A DNA stretch of 32,000 bases, from contig CP149973.1 of NCBI GenBank assembly GCA_029269845.2, positions 1,320,001 to 1,352,000 of the forward strand, in the 5' to 3' direction. This document shows positions 3,164 through 25,412 of this stretch, piece after piece (positions within the stretch are counted from its first letter, which is position 1; the number at the start of each line of letters is the position of its first letter). Origin of the DNA: Opitutia bacterium KCR 482. GTDB taxonomy: Bacteria; Verrucomicrobiota; Verrucomicrobiia; Opitutales; Intestinicryptomonadaceae. Below the pieces are notes generated by a model that was not told the origin of the DNA, did not search any database, and was given only the letters and a program-made list of their open reading frames with translations. The position numbers were made by a program, and so were the translations under genes.

Positions 3164-4435
3164 ATGAGAATTAAATACATGCACGTCGAAAATTTCAGGG
3201 GGCTCGTCGACGAACGCATAGAGTTCGACGAATCCATGACCGTGCTCGCGGGCGGAAACGGCGGGGGAAAGTCGTCGCTGCTGGAGGCGATTTCCATAAT
3301 GCTTTCGTGGCTGCCCGCGGGGCTTCCGTCGGCGGAGCGCACGCCGATGAAGATACGGACTTCCGACATCACCGTAGGCAAAAGCTACTCGCGCCTCTCG
3401 ATGATTCTCGGCGAGCGGCGCAAGCCCGACATCTCGCTTGCGCTCGTCAAACGCGCAAACCGCTCCGCGCCGAAAATCGACGGCAACATGGACGGCGCGA
3501 AAAAATACGCCTCCGACATGCGCGTCATGCTCGACTCCCCGCGGGGCGTCTCCGCCGACATACCCGTTTTCGTCCACTACGGCACGCATCGCAACGGCCG
3601 CTCCGCGCCGCTTCCGATGCGCAACGCCGACCGCACGAGCGTCTACGCAAAGGCGTTCGACGCGGGGACGGACTTCGGCAAATTCTCGCGCTGGATTTCG
3701 AAAGCGGTGCTCGACCGACGCCGCGAAATGGAGGACGCCGCCGCCCTTCCGCTCAAAGCCGCGAACAGGCGGCGCGAGGAAATCAACCTGAAATACGCGT
3801 CGGTCGCCGCCGTCAAACGCGCCATCGCCGACTTCGGCGACTCCTACTGCGACTTTTCAGTAAAGGACGGCGCATTGTTTTTAGGCTCAAAAAACGTCCC
3901 CGCCGCGAACCTTTCCGACGGCGAAAAAACCGTAATCGCGCTAATCGCCGACATCGCCATGCGCATGGCGGTCGCAAACCCGCAGAAGAAAAACCCGCTC
4001 GACACCTCCGCAATCATTCTCGTAGACGAGCTTGACCTGCACCTGCACCCCGACTGGCAGACGGCGATTGCCGAACGCCTGCCGCGCATTTTCACAAACG
4101 CGCAGTTCATAATTTCGTCGCACTCGCCGTCGATAATGTCGCTTGCGAAGAGCCTGTACAGAATCAGGGGAGACGGCGGGGAGTCGCGCCTCGAACACAT
4201 AGACTCGGCTTTCGGCAGAAGCCCCGCCGACCTGCTTTCGTCGGTGCTCAACGCCTCGCGCGAATCCACTACCGCCGCGAAAATCGCGAAGATGTACGAG
4301 TTTATCGACGAGGGCAAATACGCCGCCGCCCGCGACATAATCAACGAGCTTGACAAACAGATTCCCGACGACCCCGAAGTCGTCCGCGCCGAATACCTCG
4401 TCCGCGCGCTGTCGGCAAGGAGCGGCGGCAAATGA
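3164..4435 (+). CDS. ptuA: ABC/SMC-type AAA ATPase, Septu PtuA-like (AAA_15/AAA_21, COG3950-like)
   Basis: Walker [10 protein letters not shown], signature-like [11 protein letters not shown], Walker [15 protein letters not shown] and H-loop SSHSPS. N-terminus [14 protein letters not shown] is typical of this class. The track start at 3152 is TTG, so I prefer the ATG at 3164. The stop overlaps the next start (ATGA at 4432-4435). Confidence 0.8.
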
Positions 4436-18086: not shown

Positions 18087-18308
18087 ATGCCAATCTACGA
18101 ATACAAGTGCAAAAAATGCGGCGAAAGCTTCGAAGCCCTCGTCCGCGGAACGCAAAAACCCGCATGCCCCAAATGCGGGTCGAAGAACCTTTCGAAGCTC
18201 GTGTCGGGCTTTGCGGTGTCGGTAAAATCGTCGGCGGCGTGCAAACATTCGGGCGGCGGCGGACACTCGCACGGCTGCTGCTGCGGACACTGCGGCTGCG
18301 GACACTAA
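18087..18308 (+). CDS. FmdB-family zinc-ribbon protein (CxxC_CxxC_SSSS type) with a Cys/His/Gly-rich tail
   Basis: MPIYEYKCKKCGESFE...CPKCGS is the family signature. The C-terminal tail is CKHSGGGGHSHGCCCGHCGCGH. Confidence 0.85.
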   Translation: MPIYEYKCKKCGESFEALVRGTQKPACPKCGSKNLSKLVSGFAVSVKSSAACKHSGGGGHSHGCCCGHCGCGH

Positions 18309-18328: not shown

Positions 18329-19270
18329 ATGCCGAAACTTTCCGACATCGTTCCCGCGCTTGCCGCCGCCGCGATTGCGACGGCCGGGCTTTGCTCGTGC
18401 TCGTCGGGCGACGCACCGCGCCCCGACAGGTCGGAATACGCCTACACGCTGTCGCAGAAAAAACTTCTCGACATCATCGAGGAGCAGGACAGGTTTTTCG
18501 AGCGCATAAGGGGAAAATCGCGCATGAGCCGCTCCGACGCGCTGTCGCTCAAAAGCAAAATCGACGCGCTTTGGGCGGAATATCTGGCTGAGTTTCCCGA
18601 CGACGTGGACGCGCTTGTGCTCAACGGAAAATTCCTCCGCGCCACGGGCGACGACGAGCTTTCGTACAAGCAGTTTTCGCATGCCGACGCGCTGTCGCCG
18701 AACCTGCCCGTCGTAAAACAGCAGCTTGCAAACTACGAAGCCGAACACGGGCTTGCGAAACACGCGTACGACAATATCCGCGCGGCGGTGTCGCTCGCGC
18801 CCGAAAATTCCGTCTACCGACTGCAACTCGCGCAGCTGATTCTATTCTTCCGCGAGGAGCTTATCGCAAAACACGGATTTTCGCAAGCCGCGCTCGACGC
18901 CGAGCTTTCGCAGTCCTACGCGCGCGCGGCTGAGCTTGAACCCGAAAACGGGGAAATCCGCAAAAAATACGCGCTCTCTTTCTACGACCTCGGCAGAGCG
19001 GACTGGAACGAAGCCCTGCGCCAGTGGGAGATTGTGCTTGAAAAATTTTCGCCCCTCAACATAGACAAACAAACCGCAAAGGCAAACAGGGCGCGGGTAC
19101 TCGTCGAGCTTGGGCGCGATGCCGAGGCGCGGGAAGCTCTCAAAACAATCGACGCGCCAGCCCTCCAAGCCGACAAACGCAAACTTATCGAAATCATAGA
19201 CTCCGCAAAAAACGGCGCGGAGCAAACCAAGACGGAAAGCGACTTTCAATGGACCTTCTTTCGGAAATAA
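18329..19270 (+). CDS. TPR-like helical-repeat lipoprotein
   Basis: The ATG at 18329 gives MPKLSDIVPALAAAAIATAGLCSCSS, a signal peptide with a Cys-containing lipobox-like end. The remainder is helical repeats with TPR-like A/L/Y/P spacing. The 86 upstream codons in the track overlap the FmdB gene and were rejected. Confidence 0.6.
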   Translation: MPKLSDIVPALAAAAIATAGLCSCSSGDAPRPDRSEYAYTLSQKKLLDIIEEQDRFFERIRGKSRMSRSDALSLKSKIDALWAEYLAEFPDDVDALVLNGKFLRATGDDELSYKQFSHADALSPNLPVVKQQLANYEAEHGLAKHAYDNIRAAVSLAPENSVYRLQLAQLILFFREELIAKHGFSQAALDAELSQSYARAAELEPENGEIRKKYALSFYDLGRADWNEALRQWEIVLEKFSPLNIDKQTAKANRARVLVELGRDAEAREALKTIDAPALQADKRKLIEIIDSAKNGAEQTKTESDFQWTFFRK

Positions 19271-19914
19271 GAACGGGCGGAATCCTCTACATTCTGCTTC
19301 TTATTGCAATCACCATGCACGAATACGGGCACGCAATCGTTGCCGACAAGCTCGGCGACAGGCTTCCGCGCATGGACGGGCGCACGACGCTCAACCCGAT
19401 TGTGCACATGGACATGCTGGGAACCGTAATCCTGCCGATTCTTACAATCGCGCTTACTATGCGAAGCGGCTTCCCGATGGTCTTCGGCTGGGGAAAGCCT
19501 GTGCGGATTATGCTCGACAACCCCGCGACGCGCAAACGCGTAGACTTCCTTTCGACGCTCGGCGGGGTATCGATGAACCTTGTTTTGGCGGGCGTGTCGG
19601 CGGCGTTGCTTGCGGCGTTCGAAATCGCGAAACTCCCCGATTTTGCGGAGGTCGCCGCGCTTTCGATTTACGTCAACTGCGTGCTTTTCGTCATAAACAT
19701 GATTCCCGTGCCGCCGCTCGACGGCAGCGTATTTTTGCGCCGTTTCACGAACATTTCGGAGGAGACGCTCGCGGCGGTGTCGCGCTGGGGAATCGTGATT
19801 CTGCTCGTTCTGCTGAACGTGCCGCTTACGTCGAAAATCATAATGTCGGCGGTCGGATACCTCGCCGCGCTGTTTTTCGCGGGGGCGTCGCTTGCAATTT
19901 CAATCTTCAAATAA
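19249..19914 (+). CDS. Peptidase M50 (site-2 protease family) integral membrane metalloprotease
   Basis: HEYGH (HExxH) in the first TM helix and NMIPVPPLDGS (NxxPxxxLDG) in a later helix, with multiple TM segments. The start overlaps the TPR gene by 22 nt. Confidence 0.85.
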   Translation: MDLLSEIRTGGILYILLLIAITMHEYGHAIVADKLGDRLPRMDGRTTLNPIVHMDMLGTVILPILTIALTMRSGFPMVFGWGKPVRIMLDNPATRKRVDFLSTLGGVSMNLVLAGVSAALLAAFEIAKLPDFAEVAALSIYVNCVLFVINMIPVPPLDGSVFLRRFTNISEETLAAVSRWGIVILLVLLNVPLTSKIIMSAVGYLAALFFAGASLAISIFK

Positions 19915-19915
19915 C

Positions 19916-20182
19916 ATGCCGATTTACAAATACGCAACAATAGAGGCGGACGGCTCGGACGGCGAAATTTTCGAGGTCGAACAGTCCATCTCGTCGAAGC
20001 CGATAACAAAGCACCCCGAAAACGGCAAGCCCGTCAGGAGGATTTTCGACAAGCCCAACATCAATATAGAATATACCGCAGGCAAAGAGAAATCGCTTTC
20101 CGACATGGGGCGCATACGCGCCGCGGGCTTCCGCGTGCTGAAAAAAGACAAAATTTCGGGCAAATACTACGAGGAAAAATAG
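19916..20182 (+). CDS. Small FmdB-like protein lacking all four zinc-ribbon cysteines
   Basis: The ATG at 19916 lies 1 nt after the M50 stop. MPIYKYATIEADGSDGEIFEVEQ...KHPENGKPVRRIF aligns to the MPIYEY-CxxC...CPxCG pattern, with the Cys residues replaced. Confidence 0.6.
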   Translation: MPIYKYATIEADGSDGEIFEVEQSISSKPITKHPENGKPVRRIFDKPNINIEYTAGKEKSLSDMGRIRAAGFRVLKKDKISGKYYEEK

Positions 20183-20267
20183 CCCCGACTTTCGCCGCGC
20201 AAGACGCCGCGACAGCTGGAAGCCGAGCCCCGACAAGCCCAGCCCTTCGCCGCGCCGCCGCAAATTC

Positions 20268-20311
20268 CCCAATATTGGGTTGACAAGTCGCGCCGCCGTG
20301 ATTGAAAAATT
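20268..20311 (+). promoter_or_regulatory. Perfect 12-bp palindrome abutting a consensus -35 hexamer (candidate regulated promoter)
   Basis: CCCAATATTGGG (20268-20279) is immediately followed by TTGACA (20280-20285). Only a weak -10 candidate follows (TGAAAA/AAAAAT around 20303-20310). It lies upstream of the signal-peptide ORF and secA. Confidence 0.3.
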
Positions 20312-20317
20312 ACAGAA

Positions 20318-20710
20318 ATGAAATCCGCATTTGCCGCACTGTTTTTCCTGCTGTCGGGAATATATTTCCTGACGGGCGCGGCATTGTGCAACCCCGCCAC
20401 GGCAAGCTCCGCGCCGCAGTCGGACTCGGCGTTCGTCCTTTCGTCCGAAGCGGGCGAGCTACACGCCGTAGCTCCGATAGTAAACTATTCCGTGCCCGAC
20501 AAACTGAGGGGCAAAAGGCGCGACGTCTTGGGAGACTCTTCGCTTGCGTCGGCTTTCGTTTTATGCGCGCTGACCGCGGTAATTTCGGCGGCGTTTTACA
20601 AAATATTTCTGTCGGCGGCGGCGCATGCCCAAACGCGCCTGTCGAAATCCCCGAATGCGAACATTCCGTTGGACGCGTTCAGAACGCGCCCGTTCGCGCT
20701 GCTAATCTGA
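20318..20710 (+). CDS. 130-aa hypothetical exported/membrane protein immediately upstream of secA
   Basis: N-terminal signal-like MKSAFAALFFLLSGIYFLTGAALC, a second hydrophobic segment SLASAFVLCALTAVISAAFYKIF, and the C-terminus ...NIPLDAFRTRPFALLI*. Codon usage (tcg/gcg/ctg-rich) matches the genome. The competing frame (20302-20715) is Arg-rich junk. Confidence 0.55.
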   Translation: MKSAFAALFFLLSGIYFLTGAALCNPATASSAPQSDSAFVLSSEAGELHAVAPIVNYSVPDKLRGKRRDVLGDSSLASAFVLCALTAVISAAFYKIFLSAAAHAQTRLSKSPNANIPLDAFRTRPFALLI

Positions 20711-20711
20711 A

Positions 20712-20800
20712 TTAGTTTGCAAGCCCACGCACTCGCTCCGCATCGGCGGAGCTTGGCACAAATGCTGGCGCATTCCGCCCGCGCAACACTTGCAAACTAA
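20712..20800 (+). promoter_or_regulatory. Structured leader that sequesters the secA translation-initiation region
   Basis: A 12-bp perfect inverted repeat, TTAGTTTGCAAG (20712-20723) / CTTGCAAACTAA (20789-20800), encloses a 7-bp hairpin GCTCCGC-ATCG-GCGGAGC (20735-20752) and a GGCG/CGCC hairpin (20767-20779). The right arm ends 4 nt before the secA ATG. Confidence 0.55.
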
Positions 20801-20804
20801 AAAA

Positions 20805-23579
20805 ATGGCAAACATTACATCGCTGTTCGCGCGGTTGAAAAACGCGAATTTCATGCGCAAAACGGCAAAAATTATCCGCAACATAGAGCGGTTCGAAAAA
20901 CAATACGCGGCTTTCGGAAAGCCCGACCTCCCCGCGAAGACGGGGGAATTCAGGCGCAGAATCGCGGGCGGCGAACGTCTTGAAAAAATCCTGCCCGAAG
21001 CGTTCGCGCTCGCGCGGACGGCGGCGCGGCTGATTTCGGGCGAAAGCTTTTCGGTCTGCGGACGCGAAGAAAAATGGGACATGGTGCATTACCGCGTCCA
21101 GTTGCAGGCGGGCATTGCGCTCGCCCGAAACTCCGTCTGCGAAATCGCGACGGGCGAGGGCAAAACGCTAATCGCAACTCTCCCCGCGTTCGTCTACGCG
21201 CTTTTCGGCAGGGGCTGCCACATCGCGACGGTCAACGAATACCTTGCGCGGCGCGACTGCGAGTGGATGCGCCCGCTCTACTCCGCTCTCGGGCTTTCGT
21301 GCGATTTCGTCTACGCGGGGCAGTCGGCGGAGGACAAAAAACGCGCCTACTTGGCAGACATAACCTACGGCACTGCCGCCGAATTCGGCTTCGACTATTT
21401 GCGCGACAACTCCACGACCCAATCCGCCGGCGAAAAGGTGCAGCGCGGATTCTTCTACTGCCTTGTCGACGAGGCCGACTCCGTACTTGTGGACGAAGCC
21501 CGCACGCCGCTCATAATTTCGGGCGGCGACGACGAAGCCTCGGAAAACCCCTTCGAAAAAATCCTGCCGAAAATACGCGCGCTCGTCGCCGAGCAGAACA
21601 AGCTATGCGGGGCAATCGCAGGCGAAGTCCTCGCAAAAATCACGAAAGCGGGCGCGTTCGACGAGTCCGACTTGGGGAAAATCGCGCAGGTAAAATACGG
21701 TGCGCCGCGCAACAAAATGCTCAAACGCATTCTAAAAACGGGGCTTGCCAATGTCGCGCTCGAAAAGCTCCAAACCGCGCTCGACACGAACTTGGGCGAA
21801 TTCAAAAAGCGCGAAATCTCCGAAGGGCTGTTCTACTGCGTTGACGAAAAAAACAACACAGCCTCCCTCACGAAAAATGGGCAGGATTTCCTCGAACCCG
21901 ACAACCCCGACGCTTTCACATTCCCCGACGCCGAAGCGAGGCTGCGGGCAATCGACGCCGACGCGTCGCTTTCGCCCGCCGAAAAGGCGGCGCGGAAATC
22001 CGAAACCGCCGAAGCCGTCTCGAAGACGGCGGAACGCCTGCAACTCGTCTCGCAGCTGCTCCGCGCGTTCTCGCTCTACGAGCGCGACGTAGACTACATT
22101 GTCCGCAACGGGAAAATCGAAATAGTAGACCCCAACACGGGCAGAGTCATGGAGGGACGCCGTTGGAGCGACGGGCTCCATCAGGCGGTGGAGGCCAAGG
22201 AGGGGCTGAAAATCGGCGCGGAAAACATCACCTACGCCACGGTTTCAATCCAAAACTATTTCCGCATGTACGCGTACCTTTCGGGCATGACTGGCACGGC
22301 GTCGGAGCTTTCCGAAGAATTCGCCGAAACCTACAAAATGTCCGCGCTCGAAATTCCGCCGAACAAGCCCTGCGTGCGAATCGACAACCCCGACATCGTT
22401 TTCCTAACGCGGGCGGAAAAATTCGCGCGGATTGTCGAAACCGTAAAATCGGTGCGGGCGCAGGGACGCCCCGTGCTCGTGGGAACGTCGAGCGTGGAGG
22501 AATCCGAAACGCTTTCGCGCATGCTGAAAATTGCGGGCGTACCCCACAACCTGCTCAACGCAAAGCACGACGCCCGCGAGGCGGAGCTTGTTGCGCGCGC
22601 GGGCGGGCGCGGCATGATTACGATAGCAACCAACATGGCGGGGCGCGGCACCGAAATCAAACTCGGCGACGGCGTAAACGAGCTTGGCGGACTTTTCGTG
22701 ATAGCCTCCGAGCACAACTACTCGCGGCGAATAGACAGGCAGCTCATGGGCAGATGCGCCCGGCAGGGCGACAACGGGCAGACGCAGTTCATCGTCAGCT
22801 TGGAGGACGAAATTTTCCGCAAGTACGCCGACGTTTCGCCATTCCAGAACGCGCTTCAAAAAAGGCACCGCAAGGGCGTGCCGTTCTACCACCCGCTCTT
22901 TGCGCGGCTCGTCGAAAAGACGCAGGACAAATTGGAGGGCGACTACTCCGCCGCCCGCAAAAACATGCTTCGCTTCGACAATCCCGCCAACAAACAGCGA
23001 GCCGCCACATACGCCGCGCGCGACGAAATACTCTCAGACGAACAGCTCGGCGCGTTCATGTCCGACGCCCTGCGCCGCGCGGTATCCGACGCCGTTTTTG
23101 AGGCGCTCCCCGCCGAAGACATGGACATTTCCGACGCCGACATCGCGGCTCTCGAAATCTCCCTGCGCTCCGGGTTCGCGTTCGCCGCGGACGCGTTCGA
23201 ATTCGGAGTCCGGCGAAAGGCGGACATCGCCGAAACGCTCGCAAGTCGGGCGGAGGAGTCGCTCGAAAAATCGCTCGAAATTTTCGGCGCGGAAAACGCG
23301 CTTAAAATCAAACGCTACGCCGCGCTGTCCGCGCTCGACTCGGCTTGGCGCGACCACCTTGCGCGGCTCGAAAACCTGCGCGAGGCAATCTACCTGCGCG
23401 GCTACGCCCAGAAAGACCCCTACTGCGAATTCGAGCGCGAGGCGTTCGACTCGTTCACGGAATTCTGGGGCGGTTTCAGAAAGTCGCTGTTCGGGCGCAT
23501 AAAGCGGTTCGCCGACAACGCGGCGGCGGCAATCCCCGACTCTACCTCGCGCGAACGCCGAAAGAGCCTTGTGCGCTGA
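20805..23579 (+). CDS. secA: Preprotein translocase ATPase SecA
   Basis: Motifs EIATGEGKTL (Walker A), LVDEADSVLVDEARTPLIISG (DEAD/Walker B), GMTGTA, TNMAGRGTEI and GRCARQGD. The track start at 20790 is TTG inside the hairpin arm, so I prefer the ATG at 20805 (MANITS...). No C-terminal Cys-rich zinc tail is visible. Confidence 0.95.
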   Translation: MANITSLFARLKNANFMRKTAKIIRNIERFEKQYAAFGKPDLPAKTGEFRRRIAGGERLEKILPEAFALARTAARLISGESFSVCGREEKWDMVHYRVQLQAGIALARNSVCEIATGEGKTLIATLPAFVYALFGRGCHIATVNEYLARRDCEWMRPLYSALGLSCDFVYAGQSAEDKKRAYLADITYGTAAEFGFDYLRDNSTTQSAGEKVQRGFFYCLVDEADSVLVDEARTPLIISGGDDEASENPFEKILPKIRALVAEQNKLCGAIAGEVLAKITKAGAFDESDLGKIAQVKYGAPRNKMLKRILKTGLANVALEKLQTALDTNLGEFKKREISEGLFYCVDEKNNTASLTKNGQDFLEPDNPDAFTFPDAEARLRAIDADASLSPAEKAARKSETAEAVSKTAERLQLVSQLLRAFSLYERDVDYIVRNGKIEIVDPNTGRVMEGRRWSDGLHQAVEAKEGLKIGAENITYATVSIQNYFRMYAYLSGMTGTASELSEEFAETYKMSALEIPPNKPCVRIDNPDIVFLTRAEKFARIVETVKSVRAQGRPVLVGTSSVEESETLSRMLKIAGVPHNLLNAKHDAREAELVARAGGRGMITIATNMAGRGTEIKLGDGVNELGGLFVIASEHNYSRRIDRQLMGRCARQGDNGQTQFIVSLEDEIFRKYADVSPFQNALQKRHRKGVPFYHPLFARLVEKTQDKLEGDYSAARKNMLRFDNPANKQRAATYAARDEILSDEQLGAFMSDALRRAVSDAVFEALPAEDMDISDADIAALEISLRSGFAFAADAFEFGVRRKADIAETLASRAEESLEKSLEIFGAENALKIKRYAALSALDSAWRDHLARLENLREAIYLRGYAQKDPYCEFEREAFDSFTEFWGGFRKSLFGRIKRFADNAAAAIPDSTSRERRKSLVR

Positions 23580-23630: not shown

Positions 23631-23798
23631 ATGAACATTCTTGCAGGCGCAGTCCCGCTCAACATGACGCTATCGCAAATGGCGTCGTTTTGCGGAGTGG
23701 GATTTTTAATAGTAATGGTTATTCTATCAGTACTTGCAATGTGCACTACGATAATCGGAAAGTTTTTCGAGTCGATAGACAACAAAAACAAGCAATAG
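23631..23798 (+). CDS. oadG: OadG-like small membrane subunit of a Na+-translocating decarboxylase (55 aa; below the ORF-track cutoff)
   Basis: The ATG at 23631 follows AAGGAAACAAA. The product is MNILAGAVPLNMTLSQMASFCGVGFLIVMVILSVLAMCTTIIGKFFESIDNKNKQ*. A single TM helix, the small size and the position directly upstream of the beta subunit all fit OadG. Confidence 0.55.
   Translation: MNILAGAVPLNMTLSQMASFCGVGFLIVMVILSVLAMCTTIIGKFFESIDNKNKQ

Positions 23799-23831: not shown

Positions 23832-25412
<1,581 letters not shown>

Follow-up and report, generated by a model that had tools for sequence, protein, structure and literature searches.

Feedback on SecA through an upstream monitor open reading frame (ORF) is textbook nascent-chain sensing. 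In recent surveys monitor ORFs are patchy and lineage-specific, and their few motif types are mostly proline-rich (PMC10987492; PMC7897499). Four in-silico features mark candidate monitoring substrates: an unannotated small ORF 5' of a sec or yidC gene, an N-terminal signal, a conserved C-terminus, and a spacer of more than 30 residues (PMC10987492; PMC7897499). In the stop-type upstream ORFs (uORFs), stalling occurs while the A site is occupied by the stop codon, as tested in vitro (PMC10987492). Here a locus of comparable layout is described from Opitutia bacterium KCR 482. The window, that is, the whole stretch of DNA that was analysed, comprises 32,000 nucleotides (nt; contig CP149973.1, positions 1,320,001 to 1,352,000), and in it a short ORF lies directly 5' of secA. 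The two genes are separated by 94 nt, the ends of which are predicted to pair and to cover the secA start region. On balance, secA is probably coupled translationally to the upstream ORF through unmasking of its start region.

The upstream ORF is a genuine conserved gene and not an artefact of GC-rich sequence. Its homologues share 29-98% identity. A search of 5.8 billion proteins returned ten relatives (45-98% identity). A few further ones came from a profile search over 1.84 billion cluster representatives, and with a second such search the family rose to ~17 clusters in all. No member of the family carries a name or has a Pfam or NCBIfam match, and a scan of the ORF against Pfam-A, the SecM family included, gave nothing at E <= 0.01. 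According to genome records the family belongs to uncultured Opitutia/Opitutales-like Verrucomicrobiota, with at least one contig labelled as human-gut metagenome. An alternative-frame ORF (20302-20715) and minus-strand ORFs over the spacer are regarded as spurious, as homologues exist only for the frame that begins at 20318.

The loci were sorted into six roughly equidistant clades, between which identity is 29-43% for the ORF product and 59-72% for the N-terminal part of SecA. The gene for SecA is found downstream of the ORF in clades A (the window, L008, L011-L018 and L023), B (L001-L005, L009 and L010), C (L019 and L020), D (L024 and L025) and E (L028), and is not found there in clade F (L021, L022, L026, L027 and L029-L031). 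In the five secA-linked clades the ORF is directly 5' of a co-directional secA, with a spacer of 93-115 nt. The ATG at 20805 is supported as the secA start by four SecA Pfam domains and by the conserved N-terminus of the relatives (MANITSLFARLKN / MDISALFARLKN / MTDIQALFARLKN). A TTG at 20790 is ruled out as the start, since N-terminal conservation favours the ATG.

In the minimum free energy (MFE) fold of positions 20690-20830, a helix (P1) closes an 89-nt three-way junction that contains two hairpins (P2 and P3, Table 1). P1 has 12 base pairs (bp), and its arms are 100% complementary and lie 65 nt apart. When only the end segments were shuffled, the observed duplex energy of -19.4 kcal/mol was reached in 0/3000 cases. 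Shuffling of the whole spacer of the window gave p = 0.02 for duplex energy and p = 0.056 for the number of closing pairs in the MFE fold, and the z-score of the entire window fold is -1.68. The anatomy given in a preliminary description of this locus is borne out by these results. The 130-codon ORF with its signal-like N-terminus and second hydrophobic segment has the coordinates first given, and the hydropathy of its relatives agrees. The perfect 12-bp inverted repeat closing a structure of ~89 nt was recovered both by a pairing search and in the MFE fold, where inner hairpins are also present, and its 3' arm does cover the region just before the supported secA start. The same is true of the expectation that a signal-peptide-like ORF with a conserved C-terminus would precede secA in relatives, which was found in five of the six clades, the C-terminus being (F)ALLI directly followed by the stop codon.

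Within the window, the 12-mer of the P1 arm has no exact copy beyond the two arms, which rules out a dispersed repeat or miniature inverted-repeat transposable element (MITE). Sites resembling a terminator or a promoter are absent from the spacer, which leaves an intrinsic attenuator unsupported. When positions 20200-20900 were compared with Rfam under a permissive threshold, nothing meaningful was obtained, the best match being a sub-threshold U4 small nuclear RNA on the minus strand.

The consensus fold of clade A consists of P1, P2 and P3, with 27 pairs. Variable columns are concentrated in the unpaired positions of this fold (20/37, vs 7/54 of the paired positions; Fisher p = 4.5e-5). Six pairs vary, and four of these are still paired, with C-G replaced by U-G in one, G-C by G-U in two, and A-U by U-A in the fourth, which is in P1. 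Two clade A sequences carry an A-A intermediate at this flipped pair. In clade A only, a mini-hairpin (CUAAU-CUGA-AUUAG, 20702-20715) can also be drawn over the ORF stop, and its pairing would be in competition with that of the four outermost base pairs of P1.

P1 register is lost between clades in MAFFT alignments. When sequences of clades B, C and D were folded singly, a closing helix was found around two hairpins. This helix begins 0-3 nt past the stop codon, or takes the stop codon in, and its other end lies 2-9 nt before the secA AUG. Its arms share no sequence among clades A-D (A: 5' TTAGTTTGCAAG, 3' CTTGCAAACTAA; B: 5' TTTTCCCGTAT, 3' ATACGGAAAA; C: 5' TTGCC...GTCTGTT, 3' AACGGAC..GGTAA; D: 5' TGATTGTG, 3' TACAATCA). 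A hairpin at the place of P2 is also present in B, C and D. The P3 core GCGGR/YCCGC is kept throughout A-D, with 95% of cells paired (at most 55% in slid controls) and with two pairs that change on both sides; in clade B there is one compensatory pair, U-A to C-G. A covariance model built from clade A alone places the spacers of D, C and B correctly, although weakly (E = 0.11, 1.6 and 6.6, respectively). Arm-only shuffles gave p = 0.03-0.21 for clade B, 0.06 for C, 0.008 for D and 0.10 for E; combined over clades, p = 2.6e-5, and 0.003 without clade A, in which the helix was discovered.

The start regions of the 16 genes of the window mostly have A-rich leaders with a weak (GGAA or AGGA) or no Shine-Dalgarno (SD) sequence, and secA has none. 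SD pairing seems to be of little importance in this lineage. Without an SD, initiation should depend on an unstructured start region. The cost of opening positions -18 to +12 is 12.9 kcal/mol for secA, which is the highest of the 16 (2.5-10.3 kcal/mol for the others) despite a GC content of only 29% in this region. When the stretch held by a terminating ribosome is kept single-stranded, the secA opening cost falls by 1.6-6.2 kcal/mol across clades. A ribosome covers ~15 nt downstream of the first P-site base. With this footprint assumed, the P1 5' arm comes to lie in the mRNA channel only when the P site holds one of codons 128-130, and with UGA in the A site 9 of its 12 nt are inside the ribosome (the arm being nt 2-13 after the stop). 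It follows from this geometry that P1 would be unwound exactly during the decoding of Leu-Leu-Ile-stop.

The ORF is predicted to encode a small two-helix membrane protein. All clades share a common build which comprises, in order, Met-Lys and a hydrophobic segment, an acidic loop, the motif PDKLRxKRR, a second transmembrane segment (TM2) ending in FY, a basic tail, and (F)ALLI. The Met-Lys start is followed by a hydrophobic stretch of ~20 residues in every clade, and from hydropathy residues 1-24 are predicted to be a signal peptide or signal anchor. A lipoprotein is unlikely, as Cys24 and its preceding residues form no conserved lipobox in the wider family. The family-wide form of the central motif is P-x-x-x-[YS]-x-x-P-D-K-L-R-x-K-R-R. 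An AlphaFold2 model of the product has helices at residues 2-23 and 64-108, with the remainder disordered and low confidence overall (mean predicted local distance difference test score 57). The ORF is fast evolving, and within clade A nonsynonymous codon changes equal or outnumber the synonymous ones. Two metagenome contigs (P0007 and P0020) have frameshifted or truncated versions, which may be assembly errors or occasional pseudogenes.

At the extreme C-terminus, (F)ALLI is found in all six clades, despite an overall identity of 29-48%. Its codons differ synonymously (CTG/CTT/TTG; CTA/CTG/CTT/TTA; ATC/ATT). Thus, selection is on the peptide and not on the RNA. The stop codon is UGA in 5/5 secA-linked clades, and UAA or UAG in clade F. 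As UGA ends 6/16 of the window genes, five out of five would be expected by chance with a probability of ~0.007, if the clades are treated as independent. The tail before (F)ALLI cannot be aligned between clades, but its length is nearly constant: FY to the C-terminus is 36 amino acids (aa) in clades A, D and E, and the same length is seen in three sub-lineages of F. Clade B has 38 aa, as does clade C by manual count, the automated pattern having taken an earlier FF in the latter. The N-terminal segment is separated from the C-terminus by ~105 residues, well above the 30 of the survey criteria, and TM2 ends ~31-36 residues before the C-terminus. Arrest-peptide force-profile work places the pull of membrane insertion on the nascent chain at ~31-36 residues' distance.

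From the anatomy, the conservation within clade A and the energetics, all observed in silico, we infer that SecA output depends on translation of the upstream ORF. In free mRNA, P1 pairing would leave the A-rich, SD-less secA start poorly accessible. A ribosome on the last three codons of the ORF and UGA would draw the P1 5' arm into its channel, whereupon P1 would melt and the secA start would be exposed to a fresh 30S subunit. SecA output would then scale with the frequency and duration of ribosomes at the ORF end. The nascent chain might itself tune the dwell time, a conjecture hinted at by the invariant (F)ALLI-UGA and the fixed tail of 36-38 aa. In the experimentally tested uORF-secDF2 system, ribosomes that pass without arrest transiently open the stem, giving basal expression (PMC10987492). 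Plain coupling is thus sufficient. The preliminary description had proposed that a ribosome at the ORF end would cover the 5' arm and ease access to the secA start, and this agrees with the geometry and opening costs calculated here. It had also held simple termination-reinitiation to be the more conservative reading; however, reinitiation by the same ribosome is unlikely over 94 structured nt, and unmasking of the start fits better. The Pro codon that it had singled out near the stop (Pro125, 20690-20692) is not conserved. Close relatives have Thr at this position, other members Ile, Leu, Tyr or Gly, and the conserved element is (F)ALLI-stop instead. Its remark that the C-terminus carries no known arrest motif holds, as FALLI resembles none and no RAGP-like motif is present.

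A number of observations weigh against coupling through P1. With whole-spacer dinucleotide shuffles the combined p is 0.04 (0.10 without clade A), and in ~30% of the shuffled spacers the two ends are joined by at least 6 pairs, which makes the statistical support for P1 across clades moderate. In clade B the helix has little strength, with -8 kcal/mol and p = 0.21 for L001. In so short a spacer, any structure that takes up the full length must border on both genes simply because of the room available, and a secA promoter may lie within the ORF. In clade E (L028, spacer 3939-4053, 115 nt), which of the secA-linked clades diverges most, the MFE fold has no closing helix. One hairpin is found right after the stop and a separate local hairpin over the secA start, and clade E may wire the same control differently. 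P1 is well supported in clade A, plausible in B-D, and absent or altered in E. As to the covariation of the two arms in relatives, which the preliminary description had put forward as a check, P1 has one A-U to U-A flip in clade A, and clade E is without the helix; the inner hairpin P3 covaries in A-D. Its SecM-like arrangement is supported in part: the layout is conserved and four clades have the closing helix, but clade E is without the helix and clade F without secA. It is nevertheless improbable that the inverted repeat is a fortuitous by-product of an AT-rich spacer, of the sort expected if RNAs of ~100 nt tend to pair their ends. The ~30% of shuffled spacers with joined ends, the small z-score of the whole fold and the helices of clades B and C, which are individually not significant, would agree with chance. 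However, the perfect 12-bp stem was never reached in the arm shuffles, stems are protected relative to loops in clade A, compensatory changes are seen in both P1 and P3, and the secA start is the most structured of the 16 despite its low GC content. A role of the spacer RNA that is independent of ORF translation is a less remote alternative, although an unlikely one. The RNA would then be an element of the secA 5' untranslated region, for example a stabiliser, a processing site or the binding site of a regulator such as SecA, and the ORF would code for a small membrane protein of the usual kind that acts in trans in a role of its own, perhaps one connected with the oadGB sodium pump encoded downstream of it. 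SecA represses its own translation in E. coli. Such a role would account for the sequence and structure of P3 both being kept in clades A-D, as might be the case for a protein-binding hairpin, and for the masking of the clade E start by a local hairpin to which the stop-proximal region does not contribute. The conserved PDKLRxKRR-TM2 core also points to a function at the protein level. An ORF-independent role would not account for a P1 5' arm that lies 0-3 nt from the stop, or includes it, in four clades, for arms that change wholly between clades yet remain complementary, or for the use of UGA in every secA-linked clade, and the RNA matches no Rfam family.

Clade F bears on both the role of the protein and the possibility of arrest. 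In this clade the ORF is directly followed by the oadG-like and oadB genes (L021 3501-4424; L029 3501-4230; L031 10001-10924). No secA is found within 10 kb of the ORF, and tblastn and blastn searches of the spacer gave no secA remnant. Still, clade F retains the signal, PDKLRxKRR, TM2, the 36-aa tail and LFALLI, with internal ORF identity down to 54%. Thus, the protein is not merely a secA leader peptide, as a function in trans would predict, and the C-terminal motif is selected for more than the control of secA in cis. Nested within coupling by unmasking, and taking up part of its probability, is the tentative possibility that the ORF is a true secretion or insertion monitor. In this case (F)ALLI would stall the ribosome with UGA in the A site, and the stall would keep P1 open and induce SecA, so that SecA synthesis would rise when export capacity falls. 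Release would come from the pull exerted as TM2 or the upstream loop engages SecA-SecYEG or YidC. The ORF shows all four of the in-silico features of monitoring substrates (PMC10987492; PMC7897499), with the qualification that the first, a sec gene directly downstream, is found in clades A-E and not in F. A monitor would also be consistent with a C-terminal motif that is conserved as protein with synonymous codon turnover, a tail fixed in length and free in sequence, as expected of a ruler of exit-tunnel length, the excess of UGA stops in the secA-linked clades, the confinement of P1 unwinding to L-L-I-stop decoding, and the fast evolution of the remainder of the protein. Against it stand the retention of the whole protein in clade F without secA, the position of the strongest conservation in mid-protein (PDKLRxKRR and TM2), unlike in SecM, MifM and VemP, and the absence from FALLI of the Pro, Gly or Trp of known arrest motifs. 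Speculatively, then, (F)ALLI-UGA could be a new, proline-free termination arrest motif in a two-helix monitor, with the tail as tunnel ruler and P1 held open by the stall. If there is arrest, it is conceivable, although doubtful, that TM2 insertion or the SecA-driven export of the KRR-bearing loop frees the stall, and similarly uncertain that clade F uses the same stall for another output, on oadGB, or for a function in trans.

Table 1. Coordinates of features in and around the ORF-secA region, numbered from the first letter of the window.
Feature	Position	Strand	Remarks
Promoter-like motif	20269-20285	+	10-bp palindrome CCAATATTGG, then G, then TTGACA (-35-like)
Upstream ORF	20318-20710	+	130 codons + UGA; ATG start; ends ...FRTRPFALLI*; taken from ORF list
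N-terminal hydrophobic segment, residues 1-24 (MKSAFAALFFLLSGIYFLTGAALC)	20318-20389	+	hydropathy windows
Strongest-conserved motif, residues 53-68 (PIVNYSVPDKLRGKRR)	20474-20521	+	P53, D61, K62, R64, R67 and others (nearly) invariant
TM2, ~residues 74-99, ending in conserved FY	20537-20614	+	hydropathy; AlphaFold2 helix 64-108; F93 and Y94 kept
Basic C-terminal tail	20600-20692	+	sequence variable, length fixed; FY to C-terminus 36 aa including FALLI
F126-A-L-L-I130 codons + UGA	20693-20710	+	invariant C-terminal motif
P1 5' arm TTAGTTTGCAAG	20712-20723	+	one unpaired base (20711) after the stop codon
P2 hairpin GCTCCGC-ATCG-GCGGAGC	20735-20752	+	all 7 bp persist across clade A, one changing from C-G to U-G
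P3 hairpin, core GCGGR...YCCGC	20763-20783	+	one U-C mismatch in the window copy
P1 3' arm CTTGCAAACTAA	20789-20800	+	spans -16 to -5 of the secA AUG
AAAA spacer + secA AUG	20801-20807	+	no Shine-Dalgarno sequence
secA, 924 aa	20805-23579	+	Pfam SecA_DEAD, SecA_PP_bind, P-loop_SecA, SecA_SW
oadG-like gene	23631-23798	+	weak NCBIfam oadG_fam match
oadB	23832-25412	+	OAD_beta annotated in related loci

The gene order in clades A-E is ORF, secA, oadG-like gene (~53 aa) and oadB. The last two are seen 3' of secA where contigs reach far enough (clades A, B and E), and clade C contigs stop inside secA, so that the ORF-secA order alone is visible there. There is no apparent reason for the placement of secA between the ORF and the beta subunit of a sodium-pumping decarboxylase. 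In clade F, L021 has a hairpin followed by a U-run ~35-65 nt past the ORF stop, and L029 is without one. The genes 5' of the ORF vary by clade: M50 peptidase-like and zinc-ribbon genes in A, a rhamnosidase and a SASA gene in B, and a Sel1-repeat gene in E. The block that precedes the ORF in clade A only consists of two small FmdB-type zinc-ribbon genes (18087-18308 and 19916-20182) around a TPR-repeat gene (~18329-19270) and an M50 peptidase-like gene (19249-19914).

A motif related to the promoter-like motif of the window, AAATTnGGTTTGAC(T/A), is found 30-50 nt 5' of the ORF start in all six clades (L001 ~3951-3966; L019 ~330-342; L021 ~3478-3492; L024 5' of 2268; L028 ~3481-3492). The perfect 10-bp palindrome adjoining TTGAC is seen in clades A and B. 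The motif may serve as a -35 element to which an upstream element is joined, or as an operator, and its conservation suggests that the ORF opens a transcription unit. A consensus promoter scan found no full promoter at the position of the motif in the window.

If the ORF is a true monitor, it would add to the known repertoire a hydrophobic, proline-free motif adjoining the stop codon, a topology in which a second TM helix lies at tunnel-length distance from the stall point, and RNA masking in a lineage that hardly uses SD sequences. This type of control would also be extended to the Verrucomicrobiota, which are common in the gut and for which hardly any molecular genetics exists. Clean natural controls are at hand in the fixed-length tail and in the secA-less clade F. 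Plain coupling alone would predict the way in which an essential gene that has no SD is translated.

The locus resembles SecM-secA of E. coli and other Gammaproteobacteria in that the gene for a small exported protein is directly 5' of secA in the same direction. In SecM-secA an intergenic RNA stem hides the secA initiation region, and a ribosome near the 3' end of the ORF disrupts the stem (PMC10987492; PMC7897499), as is predicted for the present locus. However, there is no sequence relationship, and FxxxxWIxxxxGIRAGP or a RAGP-like motif is not present in the ORF product. The stall site of SecM is Pro166, at a distance of five codons from the stop, whereas here the conserved (F)ALLI abuts the stop. 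The ORF protein also differs in its second TM helix and conserved mid-protein motif, and the masked region differs in having no SD, the mask being the closing helix of a three-way junction and not a simple hairpin. The uORFs uA_NSP-stop (Sphingobacteriaceae), uDF_NAP-stop as well as uDF_DGMK-stop are likewise unannotated, lie 5' of secA or secDF and have an N-terminal signal (PMC10987492). Their conserved motif is the very C-terminus, and they are found in lineages that use SD poorly (PMC10987492). In contrast to the hydrophobic A-L-L-I found here, their motifs end in Pro or Lys; the present motif is also from another phylum and is known from sequence alone. FALLI, PDKLR or an Opitutales candidate was not found in the text and in the searched part of the supplements of the arrest-peptide surveys, the Verrucomicrobiota candidates of Supplementary Fig. 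12, an image, being outside this scope (PMC10987492).

MifM-yidC2 of Bacillus subtilis is similar in having a membrane-anchored ORF, the C-terminal region of which controls a start-masking hairpin, with a TM segment as force input. It differs in having one N-terminal TM, in stalling at several consecutive acidic codons ahead of the stop and in its target, yidC2, and there is no homology. A masking mRNA structure is typical of SecM, MifM and VemP and was not found for ApcA, ApdA and ApdP, which are without a predicted masking hairpin (PMC7897499), although the preliminary description had counted them under the same logic. In RNA logic, the closest systems appear to be the stems of SecM, MifM and VemP together with the long-range masking of phage MS2. 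In the latter, the coat-to-replicase ('Min Jou') pairing masks the start, and upstream translation opens this pairing without arrest. As in MS2, the start would be paired over a long range with a segment that upstream ribosomes must unwind, and the layout needed for this is present here. MS2 is however viral, its masking partner is inside the upstream coding region and not past the stop, and it has no link to export. In TnaC of the E. coli tna operon, the nascent chain blocks release at UGA; this needs free tryptophan, and the peptide ends in Pro. TnaC is comparable as a short ORF with a UGA stop and a regulatory effect downstream, but it acts on Rho-dependent transcription termination and not on an initiation-masking helix. 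By analogy, the nearest described relatives in logic would be the stop-codon-arrest uORFs of Bacteroidota and Firmicutes (PMC10987492). The system would be a new functional cousin of SecM and is not a SecM homologue, and arrest in it is plausible.

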